From assembly GCA_041655935.1 (NCBI GenBank), contig JBBAEK010000006.1:3390-67389 (forward strand): a stretch of DNA of 64,000 bases. Reading direction: 5' to 3'. Within the stretch, counting starts at the first letter, position 1; each line of letters opens with the position of its first letter. Made by a program: the position numbers and the translations under genes. The notes beneath the pieces are model-generated. The model was not told the origin of the DNA and did no database searches. It saw only the letters and a program-made list of their open reading frames with translations. Source of the stretch: Eubacteriales bacterium (GTDB lineage Bacteria > Bacillota > Clostridia > Oscillospirales > CAG-272). Below are positions 1 to 57,749 of the stretch, piece after piece.

Positions 1-1768
1 AGGTGTCCATGAACAGGGCGAGGATGTCCAAGAAGTAGATTGACTCCACCCCTGCCAACGCCGTATCAATGAGATCGATGTCTTTGTCGAAAATCGCAAT
101 GACAATAGCGCCGATGTCCAAGTGGGCAATCAGCTCTTTGACGGTTTTTTGATCGGGGTTTTGATATGTAATGACGATTTGGCCATCTTCTATGGTATAG
201 GGTACCTTCAGGAACTGAGCAAGGTAGATTTGCCGGAACATGGCGTTGATGTCCAGCTTGAATTTTTCGTCCTCATACTTTAAGAGCGTGCCGATGGTTT
301 TCTCCCCCAGCACCAGGTCCAGCCCTAACTTCTCAAGATTCAGTACCAGTCCAAAAATATCCGCCAGCTTGATCTGGTCAAAACTTTCGTAAAGGGTCAC
401 CAACAGGGAGCCGCCGTTGAAGATGGCATCCACCAGCCCGCCGACATGCACGGACGCCAACAGCTCAAAAATGGTCGGGTTTTCGGGATCTCTATAGACG
501 ACCACATAGTTGCCGTCCTCGTCAAAATGAGCATCGACATTAAAGAAAGCACCTAAATACAAGTCCTCTGTCAGTGCCGGCACATAAAGCGAAACCTGGC
601 CGTCCTGATAGCGCAAGAAGTCACCGATAGTCTTGTCTGCGAACACATCGTCCAGTCCCAGCCTCTCGAGATTCAGCACCGTACCGAACAGGTCATTGAA
701 AGCAATGTCTTTCAGGTCAGCATAGAAAGCTCCCATCACATCCCCGTCGTCAAAAATGGCGGCGGCGATGGCTCCCAGGTTGAAGGGCGCCAGCAGCTCA
801 AGGAACGTCGGAGAGTCGGGGTTTTGATACTCAACGACAAACCTGCCGTTTACCGCCTGCCCGTCCACCCCGAAAATAGTCGCAAGGTACATATGTTCAA
901 AGACCCCGGGGATATACAGCTCGTACTCGCCGCTGTGACCAATCTCGCGGAAGAAAGAACCAATCCCCTTGTCTGCCAGAATCCTGTCTGTTTTAATGAC
1001 GGAGGGGTCAACGAAGAAGCGAATGATGTCGTTGAAGCGAATGTGTCCCAGACACTTGTAAATGGCGGTCTGCACAGACCCGCCTGCCGTGAAAATACCC
1101 AGCACCACGCCCAGGTCGATGGGCGCCAAAAGTTCAAACAAAGTGGGGGCCTCCGGGTTCCGATGCCGAACCACATACTCCCCCTCCTCGGTTTTCTCAT
1201 AGTCCACCCCTAAGAAAAAGCCCAACTGCACCCCTTGCAGGAACGCAGAATAATCCCCGCTCTCGGGGAAAATGATCTCATAAAGACTCTTGGTGCCGAT
1301 GGTTTCTCCCACCTCATCCCCCAGCACTCCCTCGGGGATGAACTGCAACAGGTAGTTGAGCGGCGTGTTATGTAAGAGAATATCCAGACCTTCGCTGGAG
1401 AACAACTTGCCAATCGCGGCATCCATGATGGCATCACTGGGAAGATATTTTGTGACTTCATCAGGCAAAAGCAACCCGTATCGATTGATTAGGTCATTAA
1501 GCGAGTATTCATCGGTCTCCCCCGCAACGCCCAGAATTTCCTCCAGCAGCTTTTGCAGGGTGATGCTGTTCACCGGCACTTCGGCATTCGGGTCAAAATA
1601 GTTCCCCGTATCAATGCCCATGCCAAACTCGTTAAGTTTGTCAATCGACACATTGCCGTAAATATATGCGCCGGCGCCCACAACGACGGCAATGCAGGAC
1701 AAAAATCCTATGGTAAAGACCAGGAAAAATGAGACAAACTGCACGATAAATTTGGAAAAGTACCTCAT
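1..1768 (-). CDS. Membrane-anchored tandem-repeat protein, 3'-truncated by the window edge (absent from the supplied ORF track)
   Basis: I translated the minus strand by hand from the ATG at 1768-1766. It reads MRYFSKFIVQFVSFFLVFTIGFLSCIAVVVGAGAYIYG..., a hydrophobic N-terminal anchor. Spot checks at the N-terminus (to about 1739) and at the last 60 nt (...LAGVESIYFLDILALFMDT) found no stop, and the frame appears open through to position 2. A unit of about 330 bp (about 110 aa) recurs at least 4 times. The anchor motifs ELIAHLDIGAIVIAIF, ELLASVHVGGLVDAIF, ELLAPFNLGAIAAAIF and ELLAPIDLGVVLGIF are encoded near 125, 460, 790 and 1125. Confidence 0.7.
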   Translation of the reverse strand, partial: MRYFSKFIVQFVSFFLVFTIGFLSCIAVVVGAGAYIYGNVSIDKLNEFGMGIDTGNYFDPNAEVPVNSITLQKLLEEILGVAGETDEYSLNDLINRYGLLLPDEVTKYLPSDAIMDAAIGKLFSSEGLDILLHNTPLNYLLQFIPEGVLGDEVGETIGTKSLYEIIFPESGDYSAFLQGVQLGFFLGVDYEKTEEGEYVVRHRNPEAPTLFELLAPIDLGVVLGIFTAGGSVQTAIYKCLGHIRFNDIIRFFVDPSVIKTDRILADKGIGSFFREIGHSGEYELYIPGVFEHMYLATIFGVDGQAVNGRFVVEYQNPDSPTFLELLAPFNLGAIAAAIFDDGDVMGAFYADLKDIAFNDLFGTVLNLERLGLDDVFADKTIGDFLRYQDGQVSLYVPALTEDLYLGAFFNVDAHFDEDGNYVVVYRDPENPTIFELLASVHVGGLVDAIFNGGSLLVTLYESFDQIKLADIFGLVLNLEKLGLDLVLGEKTIGTLLKYEDEKFKLDINAMFRQIYLAQFLKVPYTIEDGQIVITYQNPDQKTVKELIAHLDIGAIVIAIFDKDIDLIDTALAGVESIYFLDILALFMDT

Positions 1769-5212: not shown

Positions 5213-8200
5213 TTAGGGGTTGCGTTTCCAGTGTTCGGTGTAAAATCGATCTTGTTTCAAGCGGATCGCATTTTCCGCCGGATTGGTGACATCCACAGAG
5301 GTCCCGCTGGTGTAGGTCAGGTATCTGGTTAGATACCAACCGCTTGTGTTGACGAATGTCACGCCGGTTAAGCTGCTGCAAGCAAAGAACGCCTGCTCTC
5401 CGACCAAAGTCACGCCGCCTGGGATAGTGACAGTTGTCAGAGCGCTGCAGTCAGAGAACGCCCGCGAATCAATCGTGGTCAGGCTCTCAGGGAAAACAAT
5501 AGCGCTCAGCGCACTGCAACCAGAGAACGCGTCTGCACCGATAAAGGTCAACCCCTCGGGGAGGGTGATAGAGGTCAGACCGCTGCAAAGGGAAAATGCA
5601 GTGCTGCCGATGGTGGTCACGCCCTCAGGGAGCACAACAGTGCTTAAACCCCTGCAATCATAGAACGCGCCTGAACCGATAGAGGTCACGCCCTCAGGGA
5701 TGCTGATAGCAAGCAACCCGCTACCGGCAAAAGCAGATGGGCCGATAGAGGTCACGCTACCGTCATCGGGTATGATGCTGTTTTGGCAGCCCCTTATGAG
5801 CACCTGTGTGGCCGTCTCGATTAGACAATTGCCGCTGCTATGATAGACCGTATTACCTTCGTTCACTGAAATAGAGGTCAGGACACCGCAACCAAGGAAC
5901 GCCCCCTCACCGATGGTGGTCACACTGGCGGGAATATTGATAGAAGTCAAGGCGCTGCAAAAGGCGAACGCCTGCTTGCTGATGCTGGTCAAGCCGCCCC
6001 CGATCACCAAGGTGGTCAGCTCACCGCAACTAAGGAACGCCCCCTCACCGATGGCAGTCACACTGTCAGGGATGGTGAGAGACGTCAATTTGGCGCAACC
6101 CTCAAACGCCTTCACGTCGATGGTGGTCACGCTGTCCCCGATCACCAAAGTGGTCAGTTCGCCGCAACCATAGAACGCCCAAGGGCCGATGGTGATCACA
6201 CTGTCGGGGATGATGACAGAAGTCAGGGAAGTGCAGTAGCGGAACGCTCTGTCGCCAATCGAAGTCACGCCATTCCCTATCACGACAGAGGTCAGTTTCG
6301 TACACTGATAGAACGCCTCGAAATCGATTTTAGTCACGCTCTCCGGAATCGTCAGGCTGGTGCCTTGATAATTGCGAAAGGCAGCCTGCCCTATGGTGGT
6401 GATGGAAGGATTCTCCCCCCATAGGATGGTGGCGGCGCAAGCAGAGAAGGCATAAGGGCCAATAAATTTCACACCGTCCCCTATCAGAACGGATGTAAGC
6501 CCGTTACACCCGGAAAATGCTGCCTCGCCGATAAAGGTTGCACTGTTAGGGAGGGTCAGGGAGATAAGCCCGCTGCAACCCCAAAACGCATAGGAAGCGA
6601 TCGTTTTTAGACTGTCAGGGAGGGTCAGGGAGGTAAGCCCGCTACAACCGGAAAATGCCCCTTCAGCAATAGATGTCACGCTGCCGTCACTCGGTATGAT
6701 ACTGCCGTTAGAACCTCGCAGCAGTTCCTTGGTTTTGGTTTTGATCAAACAATTGCCGCTGCTGTGATATTTCGTATTTCCCTCGCTCACAGTAATCGAG
6801 GTAAGCCCGCTGCAAGCGTAAAATGCCCGCTCGCCGATATAGGAAACGCTGTCGGGGATTTCAATAGAAGTCAATTTTCTGCAAGCATAAAATGCCCGTG
6901 CGCTAATAGAGAGCACGCCATCTAAAATGGTGACGGAAGCAAGCTCTCTACAATTGTAAAATGCGTCAGAACCGATGTTTTTCACACCGCTCCCTATCTC
7001 GATAAAGGTAAGCGCACTGCAGCCGTAGAATGCGTAAGAGGAGATATAAGTCACGCCATTTCCTAACATGACGGAGACAAGCCCGTTGCAACCCACAAAC
7101 GCCTTGCTCGGTATATTCCCCCCAGTAATGGTAACCGTTTGTAGCGAGGCGGGGAGATAGTAGGTGGCCTTGTCTGTTGTTCCGTTGCCATATTGCTGGA
7201 TCGTCTTCACACCCCCGTCATAAATACTCCTGCCAAAGATGTAACCGAACAGTCCGCTGGTTACGTCATCGGGTATCCTTGCTTCAGAGGCGCCAACAAA
7301 AGGCAGCGTGAGGGTTGTTAACGCACTACATCCAGCAAAAGCCCACTCTCCGATAGCCGTCACACCCTCCCCTATCGTTACGGTGGTAAGGCTGCTGCAA
7401 TTTGAGAAGGCACCGCTCAAAATCTGCCCCCCGGTAACCGTCACCCTCTCCAGCGCGGCGGGGATATAGCCGGTTGCCCCTTTATAGTAGCTATACCACT
7501 GTGTCGTCTCCACACCCCCGGCATAACTGTCTGCGCCAAAGAGGTAGCCCAGCAGTGTGCTGCTCGAAGCTTCCTCCGGCAGGGGAGTGGCGCCGACAAA
7601 AGGCAAAGTGAGGGTGGTCAGCCCGCTGCACCCCGCAAACACGCCCGCCCCGATAAAAGCCACGCTGTCCGGGATGGTGGCGGAGGTGATGCCGCTGCAC
7701 CCCGCAAACACGCCCGGCCCGATAAAAGTCACGCTGTCCGGGATGGTGACGGAGGTGATGCCACGGCACCCCTCGAAGGCAAAGCCGACAATATTCACAA
7801 CGGGCAGTCCCTCTATTTCGGCGGGAATATCCAGGGTGGTTTGCGTCGCCCCCCGCTCGGTCAAGCCTGTGATGACGCAGGCATCTTCCGTTTGCAGAAA
7901 GGTGAACAGCGACGAAGCCGCCATCGGCTTCCACTTGGCATACACCGACACATTCGCGGAAAGCGGCTCCTCTAACAGCGCGTTTTCGTCAAAGGCTTGT
8001 TCCCCCTCACCCCTGTCCCAAAACCACCCGTCAAAGTCATACCCATCCTTTTGCGGGTCGCTTGGCATCTGGATAGCTTCCCCTCCGTTGGTATGCAACG
8101 TATGGTAGGTTTCCCCATCTGTAATAAATGAAACCCTAAAGCCGGCTCGCTCCACACAAGCCGCAAGGGTCAGTACGACGGTCAGCACGATGAGCAAAAC

Positions 8201-13371: not shown

Positions 13372-13380
13372 GTACGCACA

Positions 13381-13637
13381 TGCGATGATCGGAAACAAGT
13401 AGTCCGGCAAACCTTTTGCAGAGACGCTGCGGCAGGTGCGAGCAGCGAAAGAGTGGCCGGTATGAATACCTTCCGGGAGCAGCGCACCGAAAGGCCGCGA
13501 GTAGGCTGCGACGGCGACGCCCGTTATGCGTCGGGGTCATCACCTGACCCGTCAAGGCCGTCTGTCGCGAGACAGCGGTAAATTGAGGTGGTAACACGGC
13601 CACGGTCGTCCTCTGCGATGCCAGAGGACTTTTTTTA
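13381..13637 (+). promoter_or_regulatory. T-box leader (tRNA-sensing transcription attenuator)
   Basis: The Stem I base is TGCGATGA...AAGTAG and the distal elements are GCAGAGAC...GGCAGGTGCGAGC. The candidate specifier loop is CCGAAAGGCCGCGAGTAG. The T-box sequence is AATTGAGGTGGTAACACGG (13581-13599). The terminator pairs GTCCTCTG (13608-13615) with CAGAGGAC (13622-13629) and is followed by T7. Confidence 0.8.
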
Positions 13638-22675: not shown

Positions 22676-23695
22676 CTACTGACCCTTGCGTTGCCTTGCC
22701 GCCTCACACAAAATCACCGCGGCGGCACTCGATACATTGAGAGAGTTGATTTTCCCATACAGTGGGATGCTCACTGAAAAATCGCATTTTTCCCTCACCA
22801 GGCGGGAGATGCCCGCCCCCTCGCTGCCAAGCACGATGGCGGCGGGACCGCGCAGATCGACACGATGGTAGGGCTCCCCGTCCATATCGGCGGCATAAAT
22901 CCACAACCCCTGTTCTTTCAGGGTGTCGAGGGCAACGGCAAGATTGGTGACTCTGGCCACCGGCAGGTGCGCGAGCGCACCGGCGGAAGCGCGCGCCACC
23001 GCCGACGTCAGCCCGACAGCCCGCCGCTTGGGGATCACCACGCCATGCGCCCCGGCACACTCCGCGGAGCGAATGAGCGCTCCTAAGTTGTGCGGGTCCT
23101 CAATGCCGTCCGCCACCACCAGCAAGGGCGCTTCCCCCAAGGCCGCCGCCCGGTCCAGCATCTCCTGTAGCGACACATAGTTCTGTTCGGCCACCATGCC
23201 CACAATGCCTTGGTGGTTTCTGTGCCCGCACAGCAACTCCAGCCTCGCCCGCTCCACCTCTATGATGGGGACTTTCAGGGCGGCGATGTCCTGCAGTAAC
23301 CGTACCAGTCCGCCGTCCCGATCCCCTTTGGCCACAAACACTTTGTCAATGTCCCGCCCGGCTTTCAGCATTTCCCGTAGCGCATTTCGCCCGGCAATCA
23401 GACTCTCGCTCGGCGAGTCCCCCTCTGCCTCAGGCATCACGCCCTGACGGGTCAATGTCTCCCCCGACAGTTCGGAAGCCGTCACCGGAGCCCCCCGCCG
23501 CTCGGTCTCGGCACCCCGCCGTTCGCCTCCGACGGCCCGCCGCTCGTTCCCGGCGCCCCGCGCCGGAAAACGCCCATCCGTCCGACCGGCAGGCACCTTT
23601 TTGGTGCCTTGCTGCACCATCCCGGCGCCCCGCGCCGCAGATTTCTCATTCACCCGCCCGGCAACCGTCGTCTTTTTTCCGTTTTCCTCGTGCAT
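22676..23695 (-). CDS. rlmB: 23S rRNA (guanosine-2'-O)-methyltransferase RlmB (SpoU/TrmH family) with an Arg/Gly-rich N-terminal extension
   Basis: The sequences IAGRNALREMLKAGRDIDKVFV, EDPHNLGALIRSAECAGAHGVVIP, IVLGSEGAGISRLV and INSLNVSSAAAVILCE are present. The start is taken at MHEENGKK (ATG at 23695), which follows GGAAAGGG. Confidence 0.85.
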   Translation of the reverse strand: MHEENGKKTTVAGRVNEKSAARGAGMVQQGTKKVPAGRTDGRFPARGAGNERRAVGGERRGAETERRGAPVTASELSGETLTRQGVMPEAEGDSPSESLIAGRNALREMLKAGRDIDKVFVAKGDRDGGLVRLLQDIAALKVPIIEVERARLELLCGHRNHQGIVGMVAEQNYVSLQEMLDRAAALGEAPLLVVADGIEDPHNLGALIRSAECAGAHGVVIPKRRAVGLTSAVARASAGALAHLPVARVTNLAVALDTLKEQGLWIYAADMDGEPYHRVDLRGPAAIVLGSEGAGISRLVREKCDFSVSIPLYGKINSLNVSSAAAVILCEAARQRKGQ

Positions 23696-23800
23696 ATTCA
23701 GCCCTTTCCGGCGTTTGCCGCGGCAAAGCGGCTCTCTTTGATTCACAATTCCCTTGATAATATGTTACGATCAAAACGCTTCTCTTGCCATGGCACCTTG

Positions 23801-23894
23801 GCGCAGCCGTCCATCAGGCAAGCCGCACGGATGTGCGGCAGGAGCGGTAGCTCCCCGTATGGCAAAAGCAATACGGATTGCCTGTATTATACCA
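23801..23894 (-). promoter_or_regulatory. Extended -10 promoter plus conserved triple-hairpin leader module, copy A (upstream of rlmB)
   Basis: On the minus strand the module reads TGGTATAAT-ACAGGCAATC-[CCGTATTGC TTTT GCCATACGG]-G-[GGAGC TACC GCTCC]-T-[GCCGCAC ATCC GTGCGGC]-TTGCCTGATGGACGGCTGCGC. It is about 80 percent identical to 43521-43614, and the differences lie in loops or are compensatory. Confidence 0.55.
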
Positions 23895-24013
23895 CAACTC
23901 ACAAAAAAAGTATAGCCCCATGTCAAAAGTTGCAAATCAAAAGCCGGACATCCGCCCCCCGAACACCCGCACCCTCCCGGGCACACCCGCCTCGCCATCA
24001 AACCCTATCCGCA

Positions 24014-24068: not shown

Positions 24069-24341
24069 TTAGTTTCTCTTTGCTGCGTAGCATTCGCTGC
24101 AGTAAACCGCTTTGCCTTCGGTCGGATTGAAGGGCACTTTGCATTCCTTGCCACAATCGGCGCAAATGGCATCAAACATCTCCCGCGCGCCTCTTGTTGC
24201 CTGCTTCCTGCTGTCGCGACAAACCTTGCATCTCTGGGGCTCGTTTTGGAAACCCTTCTCTGCATAGAATTCCTGCTCACCTGCTGTGAACACGAAATCG
24301 CTGCCGCAATCCTTGCACTTCATTGTCTTGTCCTGAAACAT
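24069..24341 (-). CDS. Small zinc-ribbon protein (two CxxC pairs twice)
   Basis: The sequence is MFQDKTMKCKDCGSDFVFTAGEQEFYAEKGFQNEPQRCKVCR...CADCGKECKVPFNPTEGKAVYCSECY. I trimmed the start to the ATG at 24341, which follows GAGG with a 9-nt spacer. Confidence 0.75.
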   Translation of the reverse strand: MFQDKTMKCKDCGSDFVFTAGEQEFYAEKGFQNEPQRCKVCRDSRKQATRGAREMFDAICADCGKECKVPFNPTEGKAVYCSECYAAKRN

Positions 24342-24458
24342 CTGCACTACCTCGCTTAAAATGGTTAAAAATTTTGCCCTTAGACGGATTCCAACCGACA
24401 CCTTTGATAACAACGCTCTCCCTTAAGCTACTGGGGCATATAGACATTTTAATTAAGA

Positions 24459-30229: not shown

Positions 30230-30287
30230 GCCAAAACGCACTTTTCGACAGCGCAAACCTTTCCCCGGCGCACACCGCGGCCGAAAA

Positions 30288-30373
30288 GCGCCGCCCCGGC
30301 ACACAAAAAGCGTCTTGCGACGACAGCAAAGCGCCGCCCCGGCACACAAAAAGCGTCTTGCGACGACAGCAAA
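30288..30373. repeat. Perfect 43-bp tandem duplication in the yerC-like/fba intergenic region
   Basis: The unit GCGCCGCCCCGGCACACAAAAAGCGTCTTGCGACGACAGCAAA occupies 30288-30330 and is repeated exactly at 30331-30373. Confidence 0.95.
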
Positions 30374-52137: not shown

Positions 52138-52214
52138 CTTACATAAAATCAGATGCAACCAAAAGCAGGCGTTTTGGCATAGAACACGCACTTAAAATTG
52201 AATATTTCGAGCGA

Positions 52215-52372
52215 AGAATTCGGGAGAGACCGCTGCACAGCGGCGCCGAAGGTGAATTGCGCTAAACTCTCAGGCAAAAGAACCGAATTTGGACGAAACT
52301 CTGGAAAGCCATCAAATTGGCACCGAAGAAGCAATTCCTTTGGGAAGAATCTTTCAGGTAAAAAGGCAGAGA
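52215..52372 (+). promoter_or_regulatory. Tandem glycine riboswitch
   Basis: Aptamer 1 reads CGGGAGAGACCGCTGCACAGCGGCGCCGAAGGTGAA...ACTCTCAGGCAAAAGAAC. Aptamer 2 reads CTCTGGAAAGCC...GGCACCGAAGAAGCAA...TCTTTCAGGTAAAAGGCAGAG. It sits directly upstream of gcvT. Confidence 0.85.
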
Positions 52373-56750: not shown

Positions 56751-57749
56751 ATGATACGCAAAGCACGGTATATCATCGCGGAGGGATACGTGCCTTTTCC
56801 CAATATGGCGCTGGAAGAATACCTGCTCCTGCAGGTAGGGCCGGACGAATGTATTCTGTATCTGTGGCAGAATAAAAACACGGTGGTCATCGGCAGAAAT
56901 CAAAACTGCTGGAAAGAATGCAGGGTTGCCCAGCTGGAAGAAAGCGGCGGATACGTCGCCCGCCGCCTGTCGGGCGGCGGGGCGGTTTTCCACGATACAG
57001 GCAATCTAAACTTTACATTTTTAGCCCGCAAGGCTGCCTATGATGTCCCCCGACAGACAGAGGTCATCCTGAGAGCGGTCTCCTCCTTTGGCATTGATGC
57101 CCGCCGCTCCGGCAGAAACGACATCACGGTAGACGGCAGAAAATTCTCCGGCAACGCGTTTTATCAGACGGGAGACCGTTGCTATCACCACGGGACCATT
57201 CTGATCAATGCCGACATCCCCATGCTGTCGCATTACCTCCATGTTTCCGCAGAGAAGCTCAGGTCAAAGGGTGTCGACTCGGTGAAATCGCGTGTGGTCA
57301 ATCTCTGCGACATCAACCCCGACATCACGGTCGAGAAGATGAAAGCGCGCCTGATCACCGCCTTTGAGGAGGTGTACGGTGTCACGCCGGAGCCCATCGG
57401 CAGGGATGAAATCAACCAGGCCGAACTCGAAAGACTGACGCAAAAGTTTTCCGATGATACCTGGCGATTCGGTCGTCCCATCCCATTCACGTGTCAGTTA
57501 GAGAAAAGGTTTGCCTGGGGCGAGATACAACTGCAGTTACACGTGCACGGCGGGCAGATTGTTGAGGCAGCCGTATTTTCCGATGCCATGAACGCCGAGC
57601 TCATTTCCCGGATTCCCGCCGCCTTGCAAGGGGTTTTCTTTTCGTCCGATCTCCTTTCCGAGGCATTGGGGCAGATCAGTTGCGCGGATGAGGCTGAGCG
57701 TGACATGACAAGCGACATCAAGAATTTGATAAAGGAGCAGGAATTTTGA
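56751..57749 (+). CDS. lplA: Lipoate-protein ligase A
   Basis: The sequence NMALEEYLLLQV...ILYLWQNKNTVVIGRNQNCWKECR...RRLSGGGAVFHDTGNLNFTF is present. The start is ambiguous: ATG at 56751 or GTG at 56745, both with a weak SD. Confidence 0.9.
   Translation: MIRKARYIIAEGYVPFPNMALEEYLLLQVGPDECILYLWQNKNTVVIGRNQNCWKECRVAQLEESGGYVARRLSGGGAVFHDTGNLNFTFLARKAAYDVPRQTEVILRAVSSFGIDARRSGRNDITVDGRKFSGNAFYQTGDRCYHHGTILINADIPMLSHYLHVSAEKLRSKGVDSVKSRVVNLCDINPDITVEKMKARLITAFEEVYGVTPEPIGRDEINQAELERLTQKFSDDTWRFGRPIPFTCQLEKRFAWGEIQLQLHVHGGQIVEAAVFSDAMNAELISRIPAALQGVFFSSDLLSEALGQISCADEAERDMTSDIKNLIKEQEF

Follow-up and report, generated by a model that had tools for sequence, protein, structure and literature searches.

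The rlmB-like gene and the helicase gene of a Clostridia genome (Eubacteriales bacterium, contig JBBAEK010000006.1) are preceded by the same cluster of RNA hairpins, which raises the question of why two such genes should share a leader. A first-pass annotation took the shared leader as a sign of a regulatory input common to both genes. Alternatively, the leader might be a dispersed repeat. The window referred to throughout is the whole stretch of 64,000 nucleotides that was analysed; the coordinates given for it are its own, and both loci lie on its minus strand.

The hairpin module and its fold

Copy A of the module occupies positions 23885-23796, upstream of rlmB, and copy B occupies positions 43605-43516, ahead of a gene encoding a 1599-aa DEAD+UvrD helicase. 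The RNAfold energy of copy A is -46.3 kcal/mol (z = -4.1) and the fold of copy B reaches -51 kcal/mol (z = -5.6 against shuffles), while a single covariance model, R1, recognises both copies, with 97.6 and 105.4 bits, respectively. These folds and scores are far beyond chance. They bear out the three-hairpin module annotated ahead of rlmB, as well as the claim that the rlmB transcript would open with the same module as that of the helicase gene. The two copies are about 77-80% identical (77% over 91 aligned columns).

In copy A the three hairpins predicted by RNAfold are P2 (23876-23855), P3 (23854-23841) and P4 (23839-23822). Two further features had not been part of the annotated module, i.e. 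a small fifth hairpin, P5 (23813-23799), and the two halves of P1, CAGGC (23884-23880) and GCCTG (23819-23815), whose pairing could join the hairpins in a four-way junction. The complete unit of copy B (43634-43476) consists of a -35 box TTGAAT (43634-43629), the box TGGTATAAT (43614-43606), the module, a weak hairpin with a U9 run (43498-43490) and a second -10-like box, TGGTATCAT (43484-43476). The corresponding tail of copy A (23751-23798) has decayed. Read by eye against the tails of copy B and of the metagenomic locus L022 (see below), it contains the homolog of the terminator hairpin of the other copies, followed by a degenerate second -10 box, TATTAT (23762-23757), and CAAGG; blastn similarity reaches 23772-23784, and the fold of this tail is not terminator-like (z = +1.3). 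As the terminator of copy A is decayed, rlmB transcripts should read through the module.

Together with the copies from a metagenome, four independent sequence variants at four loci are known, a sample that constrains the boundaries, the copy number and the spread of the module only poorly. Among the four distinct variants 95% of the cells in the predicted hairpins are paired. Both partners have changed in five pairs (two each in P2 and P4 and one in P5, the last being a switch from U-A to G-C between copies A and B), versus 2.1 in shuffles, with n = 4 sequences. P1 and P3 are invariant, and variable columns make up 17 of the 64 paired and 16 of the 27 unpaired ones. This pattern in the aligned copies indicates that the hairpins kept pairing through compensatory changes. 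Their structure is not strictly kept, since P2 is broken in both copies of another metagenomic locus, L015.

Compensatory changes that preserve P2, P4 and P5 are also what might be seen in a lineage-specific cis-regulatory RNA, either riboswitch-like or a protein-binding attenuator, placing rlmB, the helicase gene, ruvC and dus (the last two being the genes downstream of the metagenomic copies) under one input. The hairpin cluster would then be the sensor and the overlap of P5 with the terminator the expression platform: in L022 and in copy B the 5' strand of the U-run hairpin (GCAAAAAUG) overlaps the 3' strand of P5 by 4 nt at the terminator base, so that the two structures compete. However, the terminator is decayed at rlmB, leaving copy A with none, P2 is broken in L015, and the loops and junctions, in which ligand contacts would be expected, are the parts that vary most. 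The comparison of orthologous loci, presented in the next section, bears on this reading more directly.

Pattern searches for further or partial copies of the module in the window returned only chance matches, at positions 56991 and 61193. A reading of the module as a small ORF was rejected, as the frames are interrupted in both copies A and B. A tRNA-like cloverleaf was ruled out as well: ARAGORN finds no tRNA in the window and the Rfam tRNA model misses the module.

Copy A alone has a potential alternative fold. The sequence CUUUUGCCAU, covering the P2 loop and 3' arm (23858-23867, minus strand), has its complement, AUGGCAAGAG, in the decayed tail (23782-23791, minus strand), and RNA starting at the predicted +1 of copy A is predicted to fold into the CUUUUGCCAU/AUGGCAAGAG alternative instead of P2. 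No such pairing occurs in the other copies.

The rlmB locus and its orthologs

Upstream of rlmB, the zinc-ribbon gene (Pfam zf_Tbcl) ends at position 24069 and is followed by an intrinsic terminator (24057-24017), composed of the GAAAAGCACGCAAACCCG/CGGGTTTGCGTGCTTTTC hairpin with a 17-bp stem and a T-run; the terminator of the orthologs aligns at the same place. The predicted rlmB promoter (23914-23886) comprises a -35-like box TATACT (23914-23909), a 17-nt spacer and an extended -10 element, TGTGGTATAAT (23896-23886), within which the box TGGTATAAT can be read at 23894-23886. The transcription unit is thus as cleanly delimited as had been annotated, with both the terminator and the extended -10 promoter in place. 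In sigma-70-type promoters the start position follows from a spacing rule relative to the -10 box, and its application points to A23879, preceded by C and located 7 nt past the -10 box. As this predicted start lies 3' of CAGGC, P1 would be absent from RNA made from the adjacent promoter. Such RNA would carry P2 to P5 only, and the four-way closure would be possible only in DNA or in read-through RNA.

The rlmB-like gene (22676-23709 including its RBS; Pfam SpoU_sub_bind and SpoU_methylase) begins with an ATG at 23695, preceded by the RBS GGAAAGGG (23709-23702), and is the first gene of an operon in which it is followed by the genes of a 964-aa protein and a radical-SAM protein. The start at 23695 is backed by N-terminal homology, with MHEENGKK matching MAYEKNKPK of the orthologs, and therefore a later Met, which would leave the N-terminal extension untranslated, was ruled out as the start. 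The Arg/Gly-rich N-terminal tail of this RlmB (23437-23695, minus strand) is about 70 aa longer than those of most orthologs. Within its coding region a stretch of 53 nt is directly repeated (23539-23591 and 23611-23663), and the hairpin CCGGCGC-CCC-GCGCCGG occurs in both copies.

Homologs of RlmB with 57-70% identity were traced to their contigs and the loci were compared. The gene order SBP_bac_5, DUF4364, sigma-like, zf_Tbcl, rlmB, large protein, radical SAM and DUF2344 is kept throughout, so the annotated succession of rlmB, the large protein and radical SAM holds in relatives of this organism too. The module is absent, by eye and by covariance model, from all six distinct orthologous rlmB loci (L002/L095, L003, L004, L090, L092 and L093), in each of which a terminator and the promoter TGTACA-17-TGnTATAAT are followed by a short leader (~25-45 nt). 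The sequence TATACT-17-TGTGGTATAAT of the window aligns column for column with CTGTACA-17-TGTGCTATAAT of the module-less orthologs, and L092 and L093 have the same promoter; the -35-like box, the 17-nt spacer and TGTG-n-TATAAT are common to the promoter of copy A and to the orthologs. From this alignment it follows that the promoter ahead of copy A is the ancestral rlmB promoter and that the module lies downstream of a resident promoter. Judging from the aligned loci, the module (~135 nt, down to roughly position 23751) appears to have been inserted directly after the -10 box, between the promoter and the old leader. The left -10 box at copy A reads TGG, as do the internal boxes of the unit, whereas the six rlmB orthologs have TGC or TGA; this match suggests recombination within the -10 box rather than insertion after it.

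The first-pass annotation had itself named orthologous rlmB loci without the module as evidence that would speak against a shared regulatory leader. Exactly such loci were found: six keep the terminator, the promoter and the gene, yet have no module. It is likewise absent from the orthologs of the helicase (73-75% identity; three distinct proteins at eight loci). The proposal of a shared regulatory leader is therefore not upheld. The comparison of these loci indicates that the module is a lineage-restricted repeat and not a conserved regulator of rlmB; a regulatory input common to rlmB and the helicase gene is possible but unsupported.

The same comparison weighs on the cis-regulatory RNA described above. 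A riboswitch would be present ahead of orthologous genes across relatives, and the module is missing from every orthologous locus examined. Neither copy, nor any of the metagenome loci, matches a family of Rfam 15 (E<=10). Furthermore, in the form common to three of the four variants the module is absent from 185,579 species-representative genomes. The same unit precedes the unrelated ruvC and dus genes in tandemly amplified form, which is the behaviour of a dispersed repeat, and each array unit has its own -10 box, unlike the known riboswitch tandems. On the other hand, the four known downstream genes all encode enzymes acting on nucleic acids (rRNA/tRNA modification, Holliday-junction resolution, helicase). 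This counts against a dispersed repeat, and the common theme could hint at a regulon rather than at random insertion, with n = 4 and a category picked post hoc. All in all, we regard a cis-regulatory RNA as unlikely.

Between the module and the rlmB start the annotation had noticed a perfect 14-bp palindrome, TTTGCCGCGGCAAA (23727-23714), in the 5' UTR, 18 nt before the ATG, and suggested that it might be an operator or an RBS-proximal hairpin. The palindrome is indeed there, but neither role finds support. The window contains four perfect 14-bp palindromes, versus 4.8 expected from first-order Markov simulations, the leader around TTTGCCGCGGCAAA folds no better than shuffles (z = -0.75), and the rlmB orthologs, with leaders of no more than about 25-45 nt, have no counterpart of TTTGCCGCGGCAAA. 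A shorter palindrome of 10 bp, TGCCGCGGCA, occurs three times in the window (23716, 40832 and 47428), versus 0.15 expected. The flanks of these sites show 73-74% similarity; one of the sites forms the core of TTTGCCGCGGCAAA, and another falls within the helicase gene.

Other features of this locus and of the window deserve mention in their own right. A G-rich insert of about 70 nt (23945-24012, minus strand), located downstream of the zf_Tbcl terminator and ahead of the rlmB promoter, has no counterpart in the orthologs and contains GGGTGTGCCCGGGAGGGTGCGGG, a G-quadruplex-type motif. Between the sigma-like and zf_Tbcl genes there is a 63-nt tRNA-like element (24375-24437, minus strand), scoring 33-39 bits with the Rfam tRNA model, which received no ARAGORN call in the window. 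Five orthologous loci have it in the corresponding place (L002 2483-2545, L004 2493-2555, L090 9496-9558, L092 8081-8144 and L093 9442-9504), and because of this positional conservation it is probably a functional tRNA-like structure rather than a chance match. Apart from one tRNA-like match, an Rfam scan of the window at gathering thresholds returned only a T-box leader (13376-13616, plus strand, 100.7 bits) and the two aptamers of a tandem glycine riboswitch (52211-52371, plus strand, 63.8 and 41.9 bits). The window also contains a long array of diverged 69-nt (23-codon) repeats (5358-7745), presumably encoding a repeat protein, and a 43-nt tandem pair (30278-30363).

Copies outside the window and tandem arrays

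A scan of metagenomes yielded real copies of the module in a single data set, the JGI metagenome Ga0265293. The copies of the window and of Ga0265293 are 73-87% identical over about 90 nt, their flanks and downstream genes (rlmB, helicase, RuvC, Dus) are unrelated, and the similarity between the metagenome loci and the window is limited to the unit. The two organisms share no genes in the compared loci; an indirect measure of their relatedness comes from the DAO protein of Ga0265293, whose identity to the DAO protein of a relative of the window organism amounts to 54%. With 83-87% identity, copy B resembles the metagenome copies more than it does copy A of its own genome (77%), as would be expected from the sequences of an old dispersed family.

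Locus L015 carries a full unit, then a partial one and then ruvC, while L025/L022 contains a head-to-tail array with a period of 126 nt, the last copy of which ends after P4 and runs into dus. The array units extend between successive -10 boxes. Copy B and L015 have identical right ends (19/19), TTTTTACTCATGGTATCAT, and this identity, together with the L022/L025 array, implies that the 3' end of the unit includes a -10-like box. The first -10 box of each locus is accompanied by its own -35 box at a distance of 17 nt (TTGAAT, TTGACG, TTGTTT or TATACT), and from their sequences the first promoters of the four loci look like resident promoters. Within the terminator hairpin of the L015 unit (436-507, minus strand) the palindromic 12-nt sequence CCCTTGCAAGCA is expanded to six copies, giving a stem of -48.7 kcal/mol, which looks like slippage-prone variation in terminator strength.

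Searches elsewhere were negative. Model R1 scores full copies at 90-105 bits and has no other match in 277 kb of loci and the window. The scan of the 185,579 species-representative genomes with the pattern CAGGCAATC...GGAGCTNNCGCTCC gave seven matches, all of them chance on inspection; this pattern fits three of the four variants and would not match L022-type copies. Two pattern scans of viral contigs produced 1 and 56 loci, none of which proved real by inspection or covariance model, and blastn against plasmids and phages gave no match. When concatenated six-frame translations of the module arrays were used as a protein query, no spurious ORFs spanning such arrays were found among 5.8 billion proteins.

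The arrays suggest a further reading, i.e. a multicopy sRNA gene, in which the full unit (promoter, structured RNA of ~110-125 nt and terminator) would yield a stable stand-alone RNA, with its place ahead of genes incidental and read-through a by-product. Tandem promoter-sRNA-terminator arrays are a known layout of sRNA families such as LhrC of Listeria and PrrF of Pseudomonas, and the full units in L022, L015 and copy B do combine an extended -10 promoter, a very stable fold and a U-run hairpin. This hairpin is convincing as a terminator in L022 and L015 but weak in copy B (-7.5 kcal/mol, z = -0.25), and copy A has no terminator. Moreover, the last copies of the arrays are truncated and fused to mRNA leaders, the hairpin loops are unconserved and thus offer no obvious seed region, and every copy is sense-oriented and placed directly ahead of a gene. 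A family of sRNA genes is for these reasons an improbable explanation.

Origin and possible effect of the unit

We favour, with a confidence somewhat above even, the view that copy A is a member of a lineage-restricted family of dispersed, tandem-amplifiable units located at the boundary between the -10 box and +1 in sigma-A promoters of the extended -10 type. This view builds on direct observations, i.e. the repeat family itself, its absence from orthologous loci, its place relative to the ancestral promoter, the conservation of the hairpins and the tandem arrays elsewhere. The family unit would measure about 120-135 bp, from one TGGTATAAT box to the next, and comprise 3-5 GC-rich hairpins, a U-run hairpin of variable strength and a second -10-like box. 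At rlmB it would have been inserted directly 3' of the ancestral -10 box, between the promoter and the gene.

How such a unit spreads may be approached through its ends. Compared by eye, these show no terminal inverted repeats, the criterion for MITEs; the termini are direct (TGGTATAAT ... TGGTATCAT). Copy B is flanked on both sides by ATGGAAATA, a potential target-site duplication, while copy A has only TTGTGAGT versus TTGTGAAT and none is clear in L015 or L025/L022. No transposase was found next to any copy. Elements of the IS200/IS605 type likewise lack terminal inverted repeats, and the unit might accordingly be a non-autonomous single-strand-DNA transposon end or REP-like element, whose hairpins and CAGGC/GCCTG closure would serve, in the form of folded DNA, as the recognition site of a Y1/HUH transposase with its gene elsewhere, and which would insert 3' of TATAAT-like targets. 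The position of the CAGGC half of P1 between the -10 box and the predicted start, where the four-way junction can form in DNA and not in RNA from the adjacent promoter, would suit this, as would the resident-looking -10 box, complete with a -35 box of its own, that directly adjoins each first copy. Nevertheless, we hold this reading to be very unlikely, as no such transposase accompanies any copy, the invariance of P1 deprives the closure of covariation support, only four loci are known, and the left -10 box reads TGG, with a final G that departs from the C or A of the six rlmB orthologs and agrees with the unit-internal boxes.

For a dispersed repeat of the kind favoured here, spread might proceed by recombination at the -10 boxes, possibly via circles excised from tandem arrays, or through a transposase acting on the hairpins. 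A bolder version, which we would put forward only with considerable doubt, is that of a selfish ~126-bp cassette homing to the -10/+1 boundary of extended -10 promoters. It would be transcribed from the host promoter, its 3' -10 box would serve as a replacement that keeps the host gene expressed, and each insertion would recreate the target, giving rise to head-to-tail arrays. If this were true, the cassette would be a promoter-homing mobile element without known counterpart.

Among described systems, the unit can be counted among the putative mobile promoters (PMPs; Matus-Garcia, Nijveen and van Passel 2012, as summarised in PMC3575422), which are defined operationally: non-paralogous genes must be preceded by stretches of 50 nt or more that are 80% or more identical (PMC3575422). 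Copies A and B are 83.6% identical over 55 nt, copy B and L015 88% over 101 nt, and the downstream genes are unrelated. As with PMPs, similar upstream sequences precede non-homologous genes, are common to different organisms and have no Rfam match; upstream sequences of this kind, unmatched in Rfam, are a class left unexplained in the PMP paper as summarised there (PMC3575422). In contrast to PMPs, for which neither a structure nor a mechanism has been defined, the shared part begins here at the -10 box, is mostly transcribed leader, is rich in hairpins and forms -10-to--10 tandem arrays.

By analogy, the unit also resembles structured co-transcribed repeats such as the pneumococcal BOX. BOX, RUP and SPRITE are small, species-restricted intergenic repeats, structured and modular with tandem sub-units, which are co-transcribed, likely affect the expression of neighbours and are absent from related taxa (PMC3049150). 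The unit is similarly small, lineage-restricted, structured and capable of tandem arrangement. However, BOX elements are scattered in both orientations, whereas the known copies described here are all in sense and exactly at the -10/+1 boundary, and the sequences are unrelated. Correia elements, ERIC and REPIN are promoter-bearing or hairpin-forming miniature elements (PMC3575422) and share with the unit the nature of a short non-coding repeat able to bring or create promoters, with hairpins in transcripts. They have terminal inverted repeats or consist of single REP palindromes, mostly at the 3' ends of genes, in contrast to the direct -10-like boxes at both ends and the multi-hairpin core found here; the position of the unit 5' of genes and its size do not fit REP/REPIN, which are short single palindromes, usually located 3' of genes and accompanied by a RAYT transposase elsewhere in the genome.

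At rlmB, the mRNA from the predicted A23879 would begin with 3-4 free nt, followed by P2, P3 and P4 and then the small P5, and the decayed terminator of the unit would permit read-through into rlmB and on through the 964-aa and radical-SAM genes. Its effect on the host gene would most likely be passive, the 5'-proximal hairpin stack protecting the mRNA against 5'-end-dependent decay. Stem-loops at the 5' terminus are known to stabilise mRNA in ompA and papA of E. coli and in the aprE leader of B. subtilis (reviewed in PMC3997798), and the stable hairpin predicted a few nt from the 5' end of the rlmB mRNA is of that kind. Those leaders contain a single hairpin native to one gene, while here a repeated cassette of three to five hairpins is found among genes, and stabilisation is what we would infer from the likeness. 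The hairpin stack perhaps also modulates early elongation; sensing of a signal is not to be expected.

The case of rlmB also calls for caution in annotation: a covarying leader shared by genes within one genome need not be a regulator, and it is the orthologous loci that separate the two. What is seen at this locus is a short structured repeat that has come to separate a conserved housekeeping promoter from its gene, with the promoter kept and the 5' end of the mRNA of an essential-type operon changed. If the position after the -10 box reflects a true insertion preference, it would constitute a new route by which small elements spread, and rewire or buffer transcription.
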